Positions 4,769 through 21,881 of a stretch of DNA of 32,251 bases are shown piece by piece. Each line of letters opens with the position of its first letter. Positions within the stretch are counted from its first letter, which is position 1. Source of the DNA: Candidatus Babeliales bacterium (GTDB lineage Bacteria; Babelota; Babeliae; Babelales; JABCYS01); NCBI GenBank assembly GCA_016929235.1, contig JAFGJD010000001.1:1-32251 (forward strand), given 5' to 3'. Both the position numbers and the translations under genes were made by a program. The notes beneath the pieces are model-generated. The model did not search any database. It was given only the letters and a program-made list of their open reading frames with translations, and had not been told where the DNA came from.

Positions 4769-6229
4769 TTAGAACGAAGCTCCAGCCTTACCCCAGATAC
4801 CCCATTGTGCAAGGGCGGCATTGTTTTGTGGATATTCGAAAAATGCACCAAAATTACAGAACCCATCAAACTTTTCACCTTGGGTCCCATAGCCAATTGC
4901 GGCATGTACCTTATGGGTAGTGGCGCTTGCTGCGGCTCCTGAATATTTATCTATATCTCTGTATCTGAGAGCGGTGAATGTAGAGTCATTTGCTGCACGT
5001 GCGGCTATGGTACTTTTGCTTGCGGTATAGCCTGCCGCTGTGCCGGCAATTCCATATTCTCTGATATCGACAAAGTTATTGCATTTTGAACAGACTGTAT
5101 CATCGATGTATTCGATGCGTTCACCGCGATGTGCCCATAAATTATACGCTAATTCCGCCTCAAACCCGTTATGAGCGAGCCTAAACCCGGTTACAAAATC
5201 CACAAAACTATCTGGATGAACTTTGACTCTTTGTGTCAAAACATTGACTCCTGGTGTTGGTGGAGTGCCAACAGTATCATTGGCATGGTAAAGCAAGAGA
5301 TACCGGCTCCAAGGCTTATCTTTGAGATCAAATGTGCGGTATTGTTTTCTTGCAAATAAGTACTGGTGTTCAACATTCATAAAAAAGCGAATAGGCCATT
5401 GGTTTGATTTGCGTGTGATTGGGAGTTGAAAGCATACCGCATTTCCGTATCCAACATGTTTATTGTTACCGATGTATGGAGAAAATAAATATCGTGGATC
5501 GCTGTCATCGCCAGAATTTAATGCCAAAAATGTGTAATAGATAGCTTCATAACCTTTTTTTGCGTAGATGTTTGCTGTCAACTGAAAGCGTACATTGCCT
5601 ACACCTGTTACTTTTTTTTCGCATGGTGCCAGTTTTGCATAGTTCCATGAATCTTGATTGAATGCCTCACAGATAGTATCAGGTACTCCGTCAGCCATCG
5701 TTGTTGTTTCGGCAAATTGTGTAAATGTTAGATTATTTTTGACGACTTCATATGGAACACGAATGCCAACTAACCAGTGATCGAGAAATTCATTGTCAGT
5801 GAGTTCAGAAAGTGCCTGGCTATATTCAAACACACAACCATACTGTTTCTGTTTGGGATCAAAACTGAAGTTTCCGACAAAGTCAGTTGGAAGGCCGAGC
5901 CATTCGGCTCTGATATAGGTTCCTGTCGTAGTGTACTCGGCGTTGTCACCGAGAACGTATACCGGTGTTTGACACGATGGATAGAAGTATTGTGCTGTTT
6001 TGTGATTACAGCTTCCATGATCAGTGGAGTCGTTATAAAAAGGAACGATTTGTAGGCTGCCTCCTAGAGGACCGTGGTCTTCATAGATTTTGCTGTGCCA
6101 GAGCGATTGGAGCATTGGAAGATTATGATTTGCTGGTCGCGTGAACATGAATGACCGTGAAATATGATCAGTTAATGCATACATGAACGACGGTATGAGT
6201 ACCATCAAACCGAGCAATCTTTTTTGCAT
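4769..6229 (-). CDS. Putative outer-membrane beta-barrel protein of unknown function (486 aa)
   Basis: Start moved to ATG 6229 (SD AAGGA; signal-like MQKRLLGLMVLIPSFMYA). Aromatic/Gly-rich amphipathic segments; C-terminus WGIWGKAGASF ends in Phe like a beta-signal. Confidence 0.6.
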   Translation of the reverse strand: MQKRLLGLMVLIPSFMYALTDHISRSFMFTRPANHNLPMLQSLWHSKIYEDHGPLGGSLQIVPFYNDSTDHGSCNHKTAQYFYPSCQTPVYVLGDNAEYTTTGTYIRAEWLGLPTDFVGNFSFDPKQKQYGCVFEYSQALSELTDNEFLDHWLVGIRVPYEVVKNNLTFTQFAETTTMADGVPDTICEAFNQDSWNYAKLAPCEKKVTGVGNVRFQLTANIYAKKGYEAIYYTFLALNSGDDSDPRYLFSPYIGNNKHVGYGNAVCFQLPITRKSNQWPIRFFMNVEHQYLFARKQYRTFDLKDKPWSRYLLLYHANDTVGTPPTPGVNVLTQRVKVHPDSFVDFVTGFRLAHNGFEAELAYNLWAHRGERIEYIDDTVCSKCNNFVDIREYGIAGTAAGYTASKSTIAARAANDSTFTALRYRDIDKYSGAAASATTHKVHAAIGYGTQGEKFDGFCNFGAFFEYPQNNAALAQWGIWGKAGASF

Positions 6230-6436
6230 AAGTACTTCCTTTTTTTCCAACGCTTTCACACGACAATTATGCGGAACATACCAAAGACAATGCGTCGCTT
6301 TGTGCATTAGCTTATGATACTGGCTCATGAAATACAAGGGATGTTCGTCATCTTACGGTACGTCATAGCAAGATTATTGTTTTAGTGCCAACTTGTGTAG
6401 TAAGATTCGTGTCGAACGGTGGAAAAAGGTGAGAGT

Positions 6437-7045
6437 ATGAAGCGTCATGTTACGCAAGGTTTGTCGCGGTATCGTAATCGCAGAGATTTTAAACAGTCTC
6501 CGGAGCCGCACCGTACACCAAGGCAAAATCTCAAGAGAAAAAATCGTTTTGTCATACAAAAACATGCCGCGAGAAATTTGCACTATGACTTTCGATTGCA
6601 GGTGGGGAATGTTCTTAAATCATGGGCAGTGCCAAAGGGACCATCAATTAATCCTGCAGATAAACGTCTTGCTATTCCAACTGACGATCATCCATTAGCA
6701 TATGCAACCTTTGAAGGTGTTATTCCAAAAGATAACTATGGTGCTGGAGTAGTCATGGTATGGGATATTGGTACGTACAAAAACATTACCAAGCATGATG
6801 GTAAAGCTATTTCTATGGCAAGGGGTTATCGTGAGGGGCATTTAGAATTTGAGCTTTATGGGAAAAAATTGCGGGGTAAGTTTGCGCTTGTGCAAACTGA
6901 AAGCAAGTATAAAGGTAAGCAATATTGGCTCCTTGTTAAGATGAGAGATACGCATGAAGATCGAAGGCGCAAGCCTATTGTTTCGCAGCAGCGATCAGTT
7001 TTGACTGATAGGACTATGGACCAGATCAAACGGGATGAATCATGA
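6437..7045 (+). CDS. Stand-alone LigD 3'-phosphoesterase (PE) module
   Basis: YRNRRDFKQSPEP, FVIQKHAARNLHYDFRL, SWAVPKGPS, DHPLAYATFEGVIP, YGAGVVMVWDIGTY. Start chosen at ATG 6437 (the ORF track uses GTG 6419). Confidence 0.92.
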   Translation: MKRHVTQGLSRYRNRRDFKQSPEPHRTPRQNLKRKNRFVIQKHAARNLHYDFRLQVGNVLKSWAVPKGPSINPADKRLAIPTDDHPLAYATFEGVIPKDNYGAGVVMVWDIGTYKNITKHDGKAISMARGYREGHLEFELYGKKLRGKFALVQTESKYKGKQYWLLVKMRDTHEDRRRKPIVSQQRSVLTDRTMDQIKRDES

Positions 7046-7896
7046 GTCGGGTTATTTTCACTAACAAAGAGAAAGTCTGGTTTTCTAAAACTAAGATAAC
7101 TAAGGGAGACATTCTTGCCTATTACAAGCTTGTTGCTCCTATTATGAGGCCTTATCTTAAGGACCGCCCCTTAGTGATGCAGCGATATCCTGATGGAATC
7201 AAAGGTGAGTCATTTTATCAAAAAGATATTCCCGATTATTTTCCTGATTGGATTCCAAGACTTAAGGTTAAAAAAGAGGGCGGGACCGTTACCCACGTGC
7301 TCTGCAATACTTCAGATACGTTGCTGTACATTGTAAATCAGGGGTGCCTGACGCCACACATTTGGCTCAGTAAAAAACCAAATATTCGTAAGCCAGACCG
7401 TATGATTTTTGATTTAGATCCTTCGTCACGTGGTTTTGGGCCTGTTGTTGATGCGGCGCATAGATTAAAGGTTGAGCTTGAAGATAGGGGCTTAGTTCCT
7501 TTTGTTATGACGACAGGCTCTCGAGGTGTACATGTAGTGGTTCCTCTGAAACCATCGGTTTCGTTTATGCAAGTAAAACGTTTTGCAAAGAATGTCGCGA
7601 GGACGTTGTGTGAAAAATATCCCGATGAAGTAACTCTAGAAACTCGTAAAGCAAAACGAAGAGCTCGTTTATATATTGATGTGATGCGGAATGCATATGC
7701 GCAAACAGGTGTGTGTCCATATGCCGTACGAGCATTACCTGAAGCACCAGTTGCTACGCCACTTTTGTGGAAAGAGCTTACAAAACGTATCTCTGCCCAT
7801 TCTTATACGATCAAGTCAATCAAACGACGCCTTAAAACTAAAGCGAATCCTTGGAGAGATTTCGTTCGATCTGCGCGTATGTTACCTCGTCTTTAA
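7042..7896 (+). CDS. Stand-alone LigD-type primase-polymerase (AEP) module
   Basis: RPLVMQRYPDGI, FYQK, PDRMIFDLDP (DxD), TTGSRGVHVVVP, YIDVMRN, PYAVRA, VATPLLW. ATGA overlap with the PE gene. Confidence 0.92.
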   Translation: MSRVIFTNKEKVWFSKTKITKGDILAYYKLVAPIMRPYLKDRPLVMQRYPDGIKGESFYQKDIPDYFPDWIPRLKVKKEGGTVTHVLCNTSDTLLYIVNQGCLTPHIWLSKKPNIRKPDRMIFDLDPSSRGFGPVVDAAHRLKVELEDRGLVPFVMTTGSRGVHVVVPLKPSVSFMQVKRFAKNVARTLCEKYPDEVTLETRKAKRRARLYIDVMRNAYAQTGVCPYAVRALPEAPVATPLLWKELTKRISAHSYTIKSIKRRLKTKANPWRDFVRSARMLPRL

Positions 7897-16412: not shown

Positions 16413-16507
16413 TACTCCACCTCAGATTACTACTCTCTTACTACTGTACCTGAGGGGGAGATCGTCTCACAATAGTTTGTATCTAAAAGTAAGCAATCGC
16501 TTCTGGT

Positions 16508-16831
16508 TTAGGCACCAAAAGCCTTTTGGATTTTAGCTTTTAGGTCTTCTTTGCTCATGTAGCCGCCAGTCCGGCCGACTACTTCATTATTTTGCACAAA
16601 GATGAAGGTAGGAACTGATGTGACGCCGTACTGAATAGAGAGATCACGAGACTCATCAACATTAATCTTTGCAAATTTGTAAGTAGAGCCGATTTCTTCC
16701 TCTAGTTCTGCAAAGATAGGAGCCATGTGCTGACATGGGCCACACCATGATGCGTAAATATCGATGATGATTGGCTTGGTTTCATTTTTAATTTCTTGAT
16801 TAAAATTTTCATTTGTGACTACAACGGCCAT
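16508..16831 (-). CDS. trxA: Thioredoxin
   Basis: WCGPC active site, KINVD and SVPT motifs; 107 aa. Confidence 0.96.
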   Translation of the reverse strand: MAVVVTNENFNQEIKNETKPIIIDIYASWCGPCQHMAPIFAELEEEIGSTYKFAKINVDESRDLSIQYGVTSVPTFIFVQNNEVVGRTGGYMSKEDLKAKIQKAFGA

Positions 16832-16910
16832 AATGCTTCCTTAAGGTCAAAATTATAATTTGTATGTGTAGTGTTTAGTGTATCAGGATAGAATGGGATG
16901 TGAATGTGTC

Positions 16911-17435
16911 TTAGTCCTTACATTCACAGGTTTTATCTGGGTCGCGATGTTTGTATCCTTTGATAACCAAATTGTTGAGTGCTTGGAATGAGATCTCTTT
17001 TTCAATGGGTCCAGCATCATTTAATTGATCACAGTAGATTTTGCGTGATAATTCAATTATGTAGCGATACTCGGTTTTATTTTTGTCATTTGAGACAATG
17101 ATAATGTCGACATATTCACGTTTATCGAATTTAGTAATTATAGGTTCGGTTCCTGGCATTTTTATGGCGTATACTTCTGCGAGATCAATGCGCGATTTGT
17201 TGATATCTGGATTGATATCGTGTTTTTCTGGTTTTTGGTAAACCGGTATTTGTTTGTAGAGGCCTGAGATTGAAATGTTATCAACATCGCAGACATTACC
17301 CTGGTTGTCGGTTAAAGTTCCATAAAAATTAACACTGTGTTTTTCTTTACCGCCAGTGGTGGAATTATCCGATGAAAAATGTGCCAAAACAACGAATGAA
17401 AGTGCTGCTATGATGATACGTGAGAAACACTTCAT
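16911..17435 (-). CDS. Exported hypothetical protein
   Basis: 174-aa ORF with a hydrophobic N-terminus, GAGGT SD and C-terminal CECKD. Confidence 0.7.
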   Translation of the reverse strand: MKCFSRIIIAALSFVVLAHFSSDNSTTGGKEKHSVNFYGTLTDNQGNVCDVDNISISGLYKQIPVYQKPEKHDINPDINKSRIDLAEVYAIKMPGTEPIITKFDKREYVDIIIVSNDKNKTEYRYIIELSRKIYCDQLNDAGPIEKEISFQALNNLVIKGYKHRDPDKTCECKD

Positions 17436-17565
17436 ACCTCGATCCCTTTTTTATACGAGTTTCACGAGCATTACACTCAAGGTCTACTATATCTGTTTAG
17501 TTTTGTGCAAGAGCTGTGTATATTTTCCCCAATTGGTGTGAGCATATTTGAACGAAGGAGAAAGT

Positions 17566-19206
17566 GTGAGCAGGGTAAGACAATCTACGTTCGTTGTGAT
17601 TATGGTGGGGATGGCCATTCAGATCCACGCCAAACGAGTCTTTAGCAAGTTGGATGATCTTGAGAGCGCTTCGATTGTTGAAGATGCTTCGCTTGTTGTT
17701 GAGGACAAATTGAGTATCGACTTTGCAAAAAAGCGAGAGCGCGTTGTTACTCTAGTGAAAAAGGGAATTACTCATTTGAATAGTGTTGGTCCTGAACGTG
17801 CGTTTAATGACTTTCTTTCTAATCCAAAATTTGTTGATGGAGACGTTCAAATCTTTGTTGATGGGGCGGATGGAGTTGTGTACGTCCGGCCTCCTGTTAG
17901 GGATGATATATGGCTCGATTTTTCGAAATATACCAACGCGCATGGTATTAATATTCAAGAGCTGATTTTAAAGAAGGCTAATCAGGGTGGTGGTTGGGTA
18001 TCGTATGAATGGGACGGGGGTTATAAGGAGTCGTACGTTGAAAAACTGACATATAAAGATACCGCCTACATTATTGGTGCAGGTTGGTATCCAATTTCGC
18101 GCAAAATGGCAGTAGAAAATTTTGTTCGAAGTGCTATTGCATATTTTAATAAGAATGGTGGAGAGGCAGCGTTTAGTGCTTTTTCCAACAAGTTCGGTGA
18201 TTTTATAAAAGGTGATTTATATATTTTTGTTCATGATGTCGATGGGATCGAATTAGCGCATGGTCAAAATCCTTCTTTAGTTGGTGCGGATGTCTCTTGG
18301 GATGAGGGGGTTCGACTTGAAAATGAGATGGGTAAACGCGGTGAATCTGGCTGGGTAGTAGAAAAATGGCGCAATGCTGAAAAACATTCTTTTATTCAGA
18401 TCATAGAGTATAAAGGTAAAAAATGTGTGCTTGGTGCTGGTTACTACCCTGCAACCAATCGGGATAGTGTCGTTGATTTGGTAAAAAGTGGCGTGAAATT
18501 TTTCTACGCGTGGGGGAGAGAAAAAGCTGCTGCCGAATTTAGTAATAGAGGCGGTGATTTAGGAAAATTTATCTCAGGGGAACAGTTTTTGATGATGTGT
18601 CGGTTTGATGGCGTTGTTGTTGCACATGGCGATAATCCAGACATGATAGGTCAAAATATTTTGGAACTTAAAACGCCGATTGGGCGTTACGTAATTAAAG
18701 AAACTATAGAGGTCGCTAAGCGTGGTGGGGGTTGGCTCAAGTATCGTTGGAATGGGGCATTGCTCTATTCTTATGTAGAGAAGGTGAGTGATCAGGATGG
18801 AGATTATTTTATTTCCAATGGATTTTATCCACGAACCCAAGTGCAAGAAGTTGAAAATCTTGTGACGTCGGCAGCTGAGCATCTCAAATGGATGCCGCTC
18901 GAAGAGTCACTTTATGTTTTTGGTCAAAGATCTGGTCAATTTATTCATGGATCCTATCATTTATTCTTATTCACGGAACAAGGTCGATGTCTTTTGTACG
19001 GCGCCAATCATACTTTGGTATGGGAAGACTTTAAAGACTATAAGCTTTCTGATGGTGATACTCTTATAATGCGTATGATTAATAAGGCGAAAAATGGTGG
19101 AGGTTGGTTATCATATGCGTCACGCAACAGCACCAGATGGGTGTATGTGAGAAAAATGAAAAAAGATGGCAAGGAATATATCCTTGGTTCAGGGTTCTAC
19201 GTGTAG
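17566..19206 (+). CDS. Exported protein made of four tandem single-Cache (sCache_2-like) domains, paralog A
   Basis: GTG 17566 after SD AAGGAG; signal-like N-terminus. Four ~120-aa repeats, each with a GW-containing motif (GGGWVSY, ESGWVVE, GGGWLKY, GGGWLSY), ending GAGWYP, GAGYYP, SNGFYP and GSGFYV. Confidence 0.85.
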   Translation: MSRVRQSTFVVIMVGMAIQIHAKRVFSKLDDLESASIVEDASLVVEDKLSIDFAKKRERVVTLVKKGITHLNSVGPERAFNDFLSNPKFVDGDVQIFVDGADGVVYVRPPVRDDIWLDFSKYTNAHGINIQELILKKANQGGGWVSYEWDGGYKESYVEKLTYKDTAYIIGAGWYPISRKMAVENFVRSAIAYFNKNGGEAAFSAFSNKFGDFIKGDLYIFVHDVDGIELAHGQNPSLVGADVSWDEGVRLENEMGKRGESGWVVEKWRNAEKHSFIQIIEYKGKKCVLGAGYYPATNRDSVVDLVKSGVKFFYAWGREKAAAEFSNRGGDLGKFISGEQFLMMCRFDGVVVAHGDNPDMIGQNILELKTPIGRYVIKETIEVAKRGGGWLKYRWNGALLYSYVEKVSDQDGDYFISNGFYPRTQVQEVENLVTSAAEHLKWMPLEESLYVFGQRSGQFIHGSYHLFLFTEQGRCLLYGANHTLVWEDFKDYKLSDGDTLIMRMINKAKNGGGWLSYASRNSTRWVYVRKMKKDGKEYILGSGFYV

Positions 19207-19222
19207 TCAATAGGAGAGTCTG

Positions 19223-20818
19223 ATGAAACGAATTTTACTTTGGTATGTGGTGGCGAGCGTATGGATCATGGTATGCGGGCAGAGTAAGGAGCATATTCAC
19301 ACTATTGGTGAGCAGGTGATTAATGCACATACTAAGTATGAACGGGCAGAAGCATTGGTACACGACGGGGTTGCCTTCTTAAATGAGCACTCGCTTGAAG
19401 ATTCATGTTACGCATTTTTGAATGATCTTGAGTTTATCGATGGTGATATGCAGTTATTTATTATGAATGAAGGTGGTGTGCTTTTATGCGCGCCGCCGTT
19501 TAATGCTCAAGTATGGCAGAATTTACAATCGTATAAGAATGAGCACGGTATTGTTGTTGGTGAATATTTTAGTAGGTATGCAACAGACGAGGGGAACTGG
19601 TTGCAACTTCGGTGGCACGGTGCGTATCAGTCATTTTACGTACAAAGAATAATGAAAAATAAGAAGCAGTATGTGATTGGTTCTGGGTGGGCTCCCATGA
19701 CAGGGGAAGTGGCATCTAAAGATCTAGTAAAACGCATTGTTGCCCATGCGGAACAGTATGGTAAGCATGAGACTTTTCAAGAGATTTCCAACAAGCACGG
19801 AAAGTTTGTTATAGGTGATTTATATGCCTTTGTTTATGATTTTGATGGATATTGTTTAGCAAATGGAGATGATTCTGAACTTATTGGTCAAAGGCTTATT
19901 GGTGATGAAAGAAAAGATAGAGGAATGATTCTTCAGCGAGTGATTGATCTTGCAAAAACGGAAGGTGCTGGTTGGGTTGAGTATATGTGGGAAAATGCGC
20001 CGAAGCGTGCATTTATCAAGCGTGTTCATGATATTGAGGGAGATTATTTAGTTGGAGTTGGGTACTATCCCGGAGATACAAGGGATGTTGTGCTTCGATT
20101 AGTTAGCCAGGCTGTTGATTTTTTCCAAAAACACGGGCTTGAAAAAGCTGCTGCACATTTCAACTATGATCGAGATCCTGATGTAGAGTATGGAGAGTCA
20201 CTTATATTTATGTACCGAACTGATGGATTGGTTCTTGCGCATGGTGAGGATCCTAATTTGGTTGGGCAGAATTTATTATTATTCCAAACGCCTCTTGAAC
20301 AAGAGTCGGCAAAACGCGTTATTGAAATTGCGCAAAAAGGCGGAGGTTGGGTTAAGTATCGTTGGAAGCGTAATACGTTTGTAGCGTATGTGCGTAAGGT
20401 CAGGGATGGCAAAGGAGAATACGTTATTGGTTCAGGATTTTATCCCTATAGTGAGCGACAAACTTCAGAAGATTTAGTAAAGGATGCCATTATACATATT
20501 CATAATACTAAACTTACCTCAGCGCTCAGAGATTTTCTTGTTCAAGGGGATTACAACAAAGGTTCTTATTCTGTGTCAGTTTTCAATGCACAGGGTGATT
20601 GTCTTGTTTATGGTCGAAATGCAGATATGATCTGGAGAAATTTTAAGTTGTTTAAGGATACACGTGGCGTAAATGTGTTTTCCCTTATGAAAAAGGCGGC
20701 AAAAAAAGGTGGTGGCTGGATTACCTATGAGTCTAAGAACGTACAAAAACATGTATACGTGGAGCCGGTGAAAAAGGACGGAAAATGGTTTCTTGTTTCA
20801 TCTGGATTCTACGAGTAG
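19223..20818 (+). CDS. Exported protein made of four tandem single-Cache domains, paralog B
   Basis: SD AGGAG; signal-like MKRILLWYVVASVWIMVCG. Four repeats ending GSGWAP, GVGYYP, GSGFYP and SSGFYE; contains GDLYAFVYDFDGYCLA, typical of sCache_2. Confidence 0.85.
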   Translation: MKRILLWYVVASVWIMVCGQSKEHIHTIGEQVINAHTKYERAEALVHDGVAFLNEHSLEDSCYAFLNDLEFIDGDMQLFIMNEGGVLLCAPPFNAQVWQNLQSYKNEHGIVVGEYFSRYATDEGNWLQLRWHGAYQSFYVQRIMKNKKQYVIGSGWAPMTGEVASKDLVKRIVAHAEQYGKHETFQEISNKHGKFVIGDLYAFVYDFDGYCLANGDDSELIGQRLIGDERKDRGMILQRVIDLAKTEGAGWVEYMWENAPKRAFIKRVHDIEGDYLVGVGYYPGDTRDVVLRLVSQAVDFFQKHGLEKAAAHFNYDRDPDVEYGESLIFMYRTDGLVLAHGEDPNLVGQNLLLFQTPLEQESAKRVIEIAQKGGGWVKYRWKRNTFVAYVRKVRDGKGEYVIGSGFYPYSERQTSEDLVKDAIIHIHNTKLTSALRDFLVQGDYNKGSYSVSVFNAQGDCLVYGRNADMIWRNFKLFKDTRGVNVFSLMKKAAKKGGGWITYESKNVQKHVYVEPVKKDGKWFLVSSGFYE

Positions 20819-20830
20819 GAATGTTTGAGG

Positions 20831-21441
20831 ATGAAACGATTGGAATCCGCTCTGATATTCCTAGTTTCTATACTTTTATTTCATAGAAGCGCGTGCGCAG
20901 CCGTATCAGATGTGTATGAAACGGTTGTTCCACACTGTTTGGAGCATTGCCAACGGTTGTGCAAAAAAATAACTATGCAATTTTACTGAATTTTGGTCAG
21001 TATCTCTGGGTTAAAGATGGGTGTGATGATGCAATTGAAAAAGTGATGACATGCACCTTCGTTCTGCGGTTGGAAGACACCAGCTTTCACCGTTAGGTGT
21101 TGGATTATTTTTTCGTGTTGGATGGGCTCCGAAGAACCAAAACATTATAGATCAGTTTTACAGTATTGGTTTTGGAGGATTTGGAGTATCGGGGCGGATA
21201 GATGATAGGTGGGGTATTGGTTATGCAATGACATACGTATCAAAGAATCTTAGGAACGATCTGATAACGCTTGATAATAATGATTTACATGCAAGCGAAC
21301 ATGCAATTGAGGCATTTTATAATTTACAGGTCGCGCCATCTATACATACAACATTACACATGCAGGCGATTACATCTCCGCTTACAACACAAAGTATTGC
21401 GTTTCCAATGAGCGTAACGCATACAGGTCGATTTTTTTTAG
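20831..21441 (+). pseudogene. Degraded OprB-family (carbohydrate-selective) porin
   Basis: Four colinear pieces in shifting frames: signal peptide MKRLESALIFLVSILLFHRSACA (20831); NNYAILLNFGQYLWV (about 20968); GVGLFFRVGWAP...GRIDDRWGIGY...EHAIEAFYNLQV (21051 ORF); and RIQVDFF-stop (21418..21441). Confidence 0.75.
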
Positions 21442-21457
21442 ACAAGCAGTGCAATTG

Positions 21458-21613
21458 TTATTTTTTACAGCATGTGGAGCATGTGCTTTTCTTGGAGTTG
21501 TGTTTCGTACACAATCCGCAGCATTTTTCACAGTTCTTACTGCATGTCTTAGTGCCAGAACAGCACATGCTACATGCTTTGTTGCATTTTGGACAACACT
21601 TTTTGCAAATCAT
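21458..21613 (-). CDS. Small Cys/Lys-rich metallothionein-like protein (51 aa)
   Basis: Hand translation MICKKCCPKCNKACSMCCSGTKTCSKNCEKCCGLCTKHNSKKSTCSTCCKK: 15 Cys, 12 Lys, no Phe/Tyr/Trp. SD AAGAGGAG upstream of the ATG; TAA stop. Confidence 0.78.
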   Translation of the reverse strand: MICKKCCPKCNKACSMCCSGTKTCSKNCEKCCGLCTKHNSKKSTCSTCCKK

Positions 21614-21789
21614 ATTCTTCTCCTCTTAGCATAAGAATTCCTCTTATATGAATATACTTATGAGCTTCATGTGAAACAAGAATTATGATTTGATTGTTTT
21701 AAATTATGTGAAACAGGAAGACGAAAAAGAGCAGAGTTCTCTTGGTATTGGGTACGTCAGTAGGAGATTAGGTTATTTGTTCGAAATAA

Positions 21790-21881
21790 TGGAGGAGAGA
21801 GAGGGATTCGAACCCTCGATTCCGATCTCTCGGAATAACGGTTTTCAAGACCGCCGCATTCGACCGCTCTGCCATCTCTCC
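21790..21881 (-). tRNA. tRNA-Ser(TGA)
   Basis: GGAGAGA/TCTCTCC acceptor stem, GCGGT-CTTGAAA-ACCGT anticodon arm, long variable arm, GTTCGAATC, encoded CCA. Confidence 0.96.

Follow-up and report, generated by a model that had tools for sequence, protein, structure and literature searches.

Four-Cache proteins without signalling output in Babelota: candidate periplasmic carboxylate-capture proteins

What does a Cache domain do in a protein that carries nothing but Cache domains? These domains are usually treated as input modules of receptors. The Cache models were built from proteins with output domains (Upadhyay et al., PMC4822843), and more than 90% of Cache members carry fused signalling modules, the stand-alone ones being unusual and capable of non-sensing roles (bioRxiv 10.64898/2026.02.01.703092). 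The question is raised by two adjacent genes, A and B, in a 32,251-nt stretch of DNA from a Candidatus Babeliales bacterium (contig JAFGJD010000001.1 of assembly GCA_016929235.1; "the window" below is this whole stretch), which is contig C6 of an 809-kb assembly that is 99.3% complete. Each gene encodes four sCache_2 repeats behind a signal-like N terminus and stops right after the last repeat. From the fold, architecture, distribution, pocket pattern, genomic context and lack of receptors of this family, we infer, with a probability of roughly 0.45, that its members are exported, rigid periplasmic proteins that capture carboxylates for hand-over and have left signalling. The pair is arranged as follows.

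17566..19206, forward strand: gene A, a four-repeat sCache_2 protein of 546 amino acids (P0001), predicted to be exported; GTG start with AGGAG 4-5 nt upstream
17566..17631, forward strand: signal-peptide-like segment of gene A, residues 1-22, from hydropathy, with the putative cleavage site placed by eye
19207..19222, forward strand: 16-nt spacer between A and B, with an AGGAG ribosome-binding site at 19212-19216
19223..20818, forward strand: gene B, a four-repeat sCache_2 protein of 531 amino acids (P0002), predicted to be exported
19223..19279, forward strand: signal-peptide-like segment of gene B, residues 1-19, from hydropathy, with the putative cleavage site placed by eye

Lying 16 nt apart on the same strand, the two genes are probably co-transcribed; their proteins share 38% identity, and a database record of 546 amino acids on the same contig (P0030) corresponds to gene A. 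Positions 16500-21819 are covered without differences by a single contig from a public DNA run that may derive from the source sample, so the tandem pair is no obvious assembly artefact. A promoter and terminator scan stayed at or below chance (6 promoter-like sites against 12.2 expected), and two RNA runs of the same study as the DNA run did not cover genes A and B.

Both proteins exceed the Pfam cut-offs for sCache_2 and dCache_2, with 79.1 and 73.4 bits for sCache_2 (PF17200) against a cut-off of 25. The Pfam sCache_2 model matches seven of the eight repeats and, in this genome, nothing outside this locus. We also built an independent hidden Markov model (HMM) from 82 repeats taken only from arrays that are not of the Babelota type. 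It found exactly four domains in each protein (36-83 bits, independent E-values 3e-13 to 1e-27) and none across 100 shuffles. An AlphaFold model of the gene B protein shows four equal repeats (predicted local distance difference test, pLDDT, 86.5; predicted template-modelling score, pTM, 0.78), and the four-Cache core of a relative, modelled from a 41-row alignment, reached pLDDT 93.1 and pTM 0.85, which suggests that the four repeats form one defined body. The models show the two N-terminal helices and the PAS-like five-stranded sheet that mark sCache_2, and match 4K08 at Z 16.7 and 17.6. For the gene B model, 4K08 is the best structural match (Z 16.7, root-mean-square deviation 2.3 Å over 123 residues), followed by 4EXO, 5G4Y and TlpB, all single sCache_2 domains; Z ranges from 13.8 to 17.6. 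Among the matches listed, none covers the whole chain (TM-scores ≤0.21).

Hydropathy gives each protein one short N-terminal hydrophobic stretch (11-residue value 2.6 in A and 2.3 in B) and no later hydrophobic segment (19-residue maximum 1.09 and 1.04). Sec export of both proteins is predicted from this N-terminal stretch, which could be a cleavable signal or an anchor. HAMP, kinase, methyl-accepting chemotaxis protein (MCP) and cyclase domains are absent from the 25 window proteins scanned. NCBIfam gave only sub-threshold matches to the MctS/CtpM sensors. In A and B, neither dCache_1 nor VWA matched, and no CXXCH motif is evident. The preliminary description of this locus, made from the letters alone, had claimed two adjacent genes 16 nt apart, a signal-like N terminus with no second transmembrane helix, four Cache repeats running to each C terminus and no signalling domain in the window, and all of this was borne out. 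Its count of eight Cache domains stands as far as the folds go; most of them lack the known carboxylate pocket, as set out below.

We then surveyed the architecture and neighbourhood of the family across 214 genomes of the phylum by profile search (threshold E≤1e-20). It occurs in 101 genomes, confined to four families (3/4 genomes of f1, 31/32 of f2, 66/68 of f19 and 1/1 of f21, together 101/105), and in 0/109 genomes of the remaining 17 families at that threshold; the f2 genome that lacks it has a gene fragment at a contig end. Named homologs come from Ca. Dependentiae and candidate division TM6, that is, from Babelota, which are described as strictly intracellular in protists (PMC12172432). 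The carrier genomes are related and not independent of each other, and the distribution may reflect a single gain. A single match is found in 89 of the 101 carriers and two to four, some of them fragments, in the other 12, with one eight-repeat fusion; the pair in the window arose by local duplication, the gene being single-copy in most carriers. The Pfam sCache_2 model, run on 43 non-carriers, gave one match, in a genome of family f4. Contig G141:C12 of this genome (L142:3515-7587) encodes, at a different locus, three tandem, far-diverged poly-Cache proteins of 454-467 amino acids, also without output.

The family ends where its repeats end. We aligned 78 copies of 500-800 amino acids out of the 80 copies in 71 mapped loci: 68 end at the identical column, the longest tail is 46 amino acids, and no open frame in the 101 genomes exceeds 746 amino acids save the eight-repeat fusion. 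An N-terminal hydrophobic stretch is present in 73/78 homologs, a core segment reaches threshold in 1/78, and N-terminal extensions are between 25 and 211 residues long. In quick trees, whose support is weak, the repeats group by position, so the four repeats predate the radiation of the clade; these trees did not resolve the sister group of the Babelota repeats. We further scanned 42 proteins, chosen for length or extensions from the best 150 profile hits in a representative library. Kinase, MCP, HAMP and cyclase domains were found in 0/42, and the extra domains were lactate permease (in two), cupin and autotransporter; distant arrays reach 16 repeats or carry an autotransporter barrel. The common end column and the lack of fused signalling domains argue that the family does not consist of truncations; the kinase- or MCP-fused relatives that would have pointed to truncation were not seen. 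A search for longer fused forms found none, a weak negative since it also missed a known member of 1179 amino acids, and a locus search with one protein as query returned six single-domain proteobacterial relatives only.

The binding pocket is retained unevenly. PscD binds carboxylates through Tyr90, His103, Tyr143 and Lys156 between two aromatic residues (PMC5062169), and lactate binders are recognised by a Leu in place of the His (PMC12415202). We mapped the pocket motif Y-aromatic-x-Y/F-x-K by alignment on the 78 homologs and found it 34 times in repeat 1, 58 times in repeat 2, twice in repeat 3 and never in repeat 4, with at least one repeat carrying it in 64/78. The complete Y-H-Y/F-K set occurs in 35/78 homologs at repeat 2 and in 27/78 at repeat 1, and the buried pocket columns of repeat 2 are among the best conserved (Y201 87%, K261 88%). 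Two relatives, P0159 of Fundidesulfovibrio magnetotacticus and P0166, consist of two sCache_2 repeats fused to an L-lactate permease, and all four of their repeats carry the lactate-type Leu at the His position, which makes them a natural control for the pocket mapping. In these proteins Cache domains are attached straight to a transporter. In the window the repeats read as follows.

17734..18093, forward strand: gene A repeat 1, pocket Q-F-R-Y-W-K, with Arg at the His position and the first Tyr gone
18103..18450, forward strand: gene A repeat 2, pocket Y-F-H-E-W-K, with Tyr, His and Lys kept and Glu in place of the second Tyr
18460..18831, forward strand: gene A repeat 3, degenerate pocket F-M-H-Y-W-L
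18841..19203, forward strand: gene A repeat 4, degenerate pocket H-F-Y-Y-S-R, running to the stop codon
19337..19696, forward strand: gene B repeat 1, pocket lost, Q-F-A-L-W-Q
19706..20071, forward strand: gene B repeat 2, the best-kept pocket, Y201, F203, N214, Y254, W256, K261
20081..20446, forward strand: gene B repeat 3, degenerate pocket L-F-H-Y-W-F
20456..20815, forward strand: gene B repeat 4, degenerate pocket S-S-Y-Y-S-K, running to the stop codon

The polar pocket residues are Y/N/Y/K in gene B repeat 2 and Y/H/E/K in gene A repeat 2, and the other six repeats fail. Judged by sequence, no more than two or three of the eight domains seem capable of binding a small acid, and none of these is fully canonical. 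Ligand capture remains the likeliest role, as the preliminary description had proposed in calling these multivalent metabolite-binding proteins; a multivalent protein with eight sites is not supported, the pocket being kept family-wide only in repeats 1 and 2 and here reaching three polar residues only in repeat 2.

Could these domains serve a receptor elsewhere in the cell? A genome-wide listing found no MCPsignal, Response_reg, HAMP, GGDEF, Guanylate_cyc, Pkinase or dCache_1 domain in this genome, with working controls for each, and the two proteins that match HATPase_c appear to be MutL and GyrB. By number of genomes, MCP domains occur in 0/101 carriers, HisKA in 4/101 and receiver domains in 5/101. 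Two-component systems are kept in families f11 (25/27) and f6 (9/9), both without the four-Cache gene. With no second hydrophobic segment and no output either fused or in the genome, the four-Cache proteins are not Cache-type transmembrane receptors. L122 and L123 (G000:C3) are membrane proteins of about 920 amino acids with a C-terminal match to sigma-54-activator-like AAA+ domains (E 2e-11 and 8e-8) and no receiver domain; they are possible unrecognised transmembrane regulators.

The genomic surroundings offer candidate partners. The four-Cache gene sits in an old block, bamA-cysS-trx-X-ybhL, whose Bax1-I gene is a YbhL ortholog (48% identity to E. coli YbhL, 27% over 123 amino acids to YccA) related to the YetJ calcium-leak channel (PMC7876416). 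A Bax1-I match is present in 87 carriers, 8 of them without listed coordinates; in 71 of the 79 with listed coordinates, ybhL lies directly upstream on the same strand, usually 3-60 nt away, as it does in 51/52 mapped loci that hold both genes. In G004 and G069, ybhL and the four-Cache gene moved together to a new site. X-ybhL adjacency (32/33 loci) and bamA-cysS adjacency (29/31) are as stable as that of ybhL and the Cache gene. A complex prediction for the four-Cache core of G003 with the neighbouring YbhL scored 0.00 in both runs, without controls, and is used neither for nor against binding. A DcaP-like porin (structural atlas TM-score 0.78 to a DcaP-named cluster; 6EUS matched only at E 0.27) is found in 66/101 carriers against 9/113 non-carriers, 7 of these 9 in family f4. 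It lies directly downstream in 5/71 mapped loci, from three families, the place that in the window is taken by an OprB remnant. In G003 (L026:8379-12733, G003:C5), a second four-Cache copy ends an operon after a UrtA-like binding protein and a dCache_1-fused gene whose C terminus weakly resembles pentameric ligand-gated ion channels (pLGICs; E 0.015 to GLIC). With one query, pLGIC-like genes, many of about 1000 amino acids, were found in 49/101 carriers and 14/113 other genomes (63/214), in a phylum where chemotaxis is almost absent. The neighbours in the window are these.

16911..17435, reverse strand: gene X, conserved, with no Pfam match, divergent from gene A; it belongs to the ancestral bamA-cysS-trx-X-ybhL block, from which this genome has lost the ybhL that would stand between X and gene A
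20831..21380, forward strand: broken OprB-family porin remnant 12 nt past gene B, the sole OprB match in the genome: a short signal-like open reading frame (ORF) begins at 20831 and is followed by stops and, at 21075-21380, by a C-terminal barrel fragment

Gene X (cluster X in 51 loci) is stable in the cysS-trx-X-ybhL block of carriers and non-carriers alike, and its protein is probably exported. An RPE65/carotenoid-oxygenase family gene (cluster c9, 11 mapped loci, e.g. L110:2546-4153) also recurs near the block in both groups.

Together these observations fit a capture protein. A Sec-exported, probably periplasmic and rigid four-domain binding protein would stand outside signalling, its repeat 2, joined in many relatives by repeat 1, holding a small carboxylate (for example acetate, pyruvate or lactate) or another small anion of this kind, with repeats 3 and 4 acting as scaffold or contact surface. 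Host-derived small acids would enter through an outer-membrane porin, be captured and held in the manner of a solute-binding protein, and be handed over to an inner-membrane carrier, for which the usual candidate would be the co-transcribed YbhL. In the genome studied here, where the gene is duplicated, ybhL and the DcaP-like porin are gone and the pockets have diverged, the copies may have shifted ligand or partner. We favour capture because the closest solved folds are carboxylate-binding sCache_2 domains (4K08, 4EXO/2QHK, 5G4Y), the repeat-2 pocket is kept, lactate-permease fusions exist, the porin co-occurs and signalling output is absent. The import of host metabolites by Babelota (PMC6561590) counts in the same direction.

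Several observations weigh against this proposal. The pair in the window is an atypical member, duplicated and with diverged pockets: the full Tyr-His-Tyr-Lys set occurs in none of its repeats, three of the four residues are kept only in repeat 2, and in gene A that repeat has a Glu in the pocket, which would disfavour an anion. ybhL, the DcaP-like porin and the pLGIC-like gene are all missing from this genome, one of three carriers without any of these candidate partners (G000, G059, G192), which weakens every partner-based reading here. Kinship confounds the co-occurrence of porin and Cache gene, and in family f4 the porin is present in 7/8 genomes that lack the four-Cache gene. No recognised carboxylate carrier lies beside the four-Cache gene in any mapped locus, and none was found among 40 mostly membrane proteins scanned in this genome, a subset of the 121 with at least two predicted helices. 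An acetate-carrier function of YbhL, which we take from an older E. coli annotation, was confirmed neither in the literature passages nor in the RefSeq annotation, and the dicarboxylate preference of DcaP is likewise our presumption, as a direct source was not found. Finally, an Atlas single-sequence model reached a pTM of only 0.36, so rigidity rests on the alignment-based models.

The same neighbours lend themselves to another interpretation, in which the protein is an accessory ligand-sensing subunit that gates or stabilises YbhL/TMBIM or a pentameric ligand-gated channel, like alpha2delta, and so provides a kinase-free cue for host entry. The constant place of the Bax1-I gene upstream, its joint move with the Cache gene and its kinship with the YetJ channel speak for this, as do the G003 operon, which parallels a stand-alone Cache beside a pLGIC (PMC549065), and alpha2delta itself, which also has four Cache domains with a known ligand site in the first pair (PMC9901441). 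However, the block is syntenic as a whole and the adjacency may be inherited gene order; a Bax1-I match is missing in 14/101 carriers, including this genome, and present in 71/113 non-carriers, while pLGIC-like genes occur in fewer than half of the carriers and not here. We therefore regard a channel subunit as unlikely, and its bolder form, an alpha2delta-like receptor evolved independently in bacteria with a free four-Cache protein gating YbhL or a pentameric channel, as more doubtful still. If true, a lineage without two-component systems or chemotaxis would sense its host without kinases, and YbhL would gain its first partner. No more probable than the channel subunit is a structural, surface or host-directed protein that uses the Cache fold as a rigid block for the envelope, for adhesion or for secretion into the protist host, ligand binding being of secondary importance. 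In its favour, repeats 3 and 4 have lost their pockets but match repeat 1 in overall conservation (mean top-residue frequency 0.47-0.50, and 0.48 in repeat 1), N-terminal extensions differ in length between homologs, distant arrays are long or barrel-bearing, and signal peptides are present in 44% of C. destructans proteins (PMC6561590). Against it, proteins that face the host usually differ in both copy number and repeat number, whereas this gene is single-copy in most carriers with four position-specific repeats fixed, and the buried pocket residues of repeat 2 are among its best-conserved columns.

A stand-alone sensor that acts in trans on a histidine kinase, chemoreceptor or cyclase, which the preliminary description had offered as an option, is largely refuted and in our view very improbable. 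Most Cache domains do serve such receptors (PMC4822843), and some databases label homologs "signal transduction histidine kinase", labels that the domain scans do not support; yet this nearly complete genome has no such domains, 96/101 carriers lack a receiver domain, and the families that keep two-component systems lack the gene. Least probable of all is a truncated or decaying relic of a receptor gene. The pockets in the window are more degenerate than those of the family, and the neighbouring ybhL and porin are lost or broken, but both window ORFs are intact, and for the family the shared end column, the short tails and frames and the absence of signalling domains among the extended relatives refute it. 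Roles outside these readings are improbable, though less so than either of the last two.

How does the family compare with known Cache proteins? It shares its fold and Pfam family with the sCache_2 domains of chemoreceptors (Adeh_3718, 4K08; V. parahaemolyticus, 4EXO/2QHK; PscD, 5G4Y/5G4Z; H. pylori TlpB, 3UB6), and most members keep the pocket residues in repeats 1 and 2. Unlike them, A and B have four tandem copies without flanking transmembrane helices, HAMP or output, the family has lost the pockets of repeats 3 and 4, and its genomes lack chemotaxis. Stand-alone Caches are also exported and output-less (sCache_heme/Tll0287 cluster 1, bioRxiv 10.64898/2026.02.01.703092; SMP_2, PMC4822843; the Cache beside a pLGIC, PMC549065), but as there described they are single domains of other Cache families. 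Alpha2delta and CACHD1 are likewise extracellular, with four Cache domains, no output of their own and a ligand site in the first pair (PMC9901441); they differ in having two dCache_1 units, VWA, a membrane anchor and amino-acid ligands, and a whole-chain TM-score of only about 0.15 makes this an analogy rather than architectural homology. The LctP fusions (P0159, P0166) and other output-less poly-sCache_2 arrays have the same short-hairpin repeat type, lack signalling domains and are exported or membrane-bound. Their repeats give the highest single-repeat scores outside the family (106-113 bits), but they have 2-16 repeats with mostly intact pockets, and the tree did not resolve them as sister group. 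The solute-binding proteins of ABC, TRAP and TTT systems resemble the family in its proposed mode, an exported soluble capture protein near porin and membrane-protein genes; their fold is unrelated, no cognate ABC or TRAP permease occurs in any mapped locus, and none is among the recurring neighbours. The domains therefore belong to sCache_2, and the proteins are neither Cache receptors nor alpha2delta nor classical solute-binding proteins. Our searches of the open-access literature turned up neither a description of a four-sCache_2 protein in bacteria nor one of Babelota Cache proteins, in line with the earlier statement that no characterised tetra-Cache protein was known.

Further observations concern other genes. 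Converging on the porin remnant is a 51-amino-acid ORF (21458-21613, reverse strand), very Cys-rich and metallothionein-like by eye, and the ORF at 21051-21629 is inflated by its antisense frame. Proteins of about 500 amino acids with no Pfam match and a terminal Phe (window 4769-6337, reverse strand; L030, L078, L084) are likely an unnamed family of outer-membrane barrels; two of them follow a four-Cache gene. At 6419-7896 (forward strand), the phosphoesterase and primase-polymerase domains of LigD are two separate adjoining genes in this 0.8-Mb genome. GyrB (G000:C4:9565-13380) has 1271 amino acids, with a large insertion that by eye is intein-like with an HNH-type endonuclease.

Altogether, what is new here is that a gene with four fixed repeats is nearly universal in an intracellular clade without receptors. 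Kept in 101/105 reduced genomes with almost no receptors, the four-Cache protein must be useful without classical signalling, and the histidine kinase labels on these proteins are wrong. The family provides a test case for stand-alone Cache function and a marker gene for this branch of Babelota. It also gives a handle on the uptake or sensing of host metabolites by protist parasites, and hints at a possible function of YbhL.

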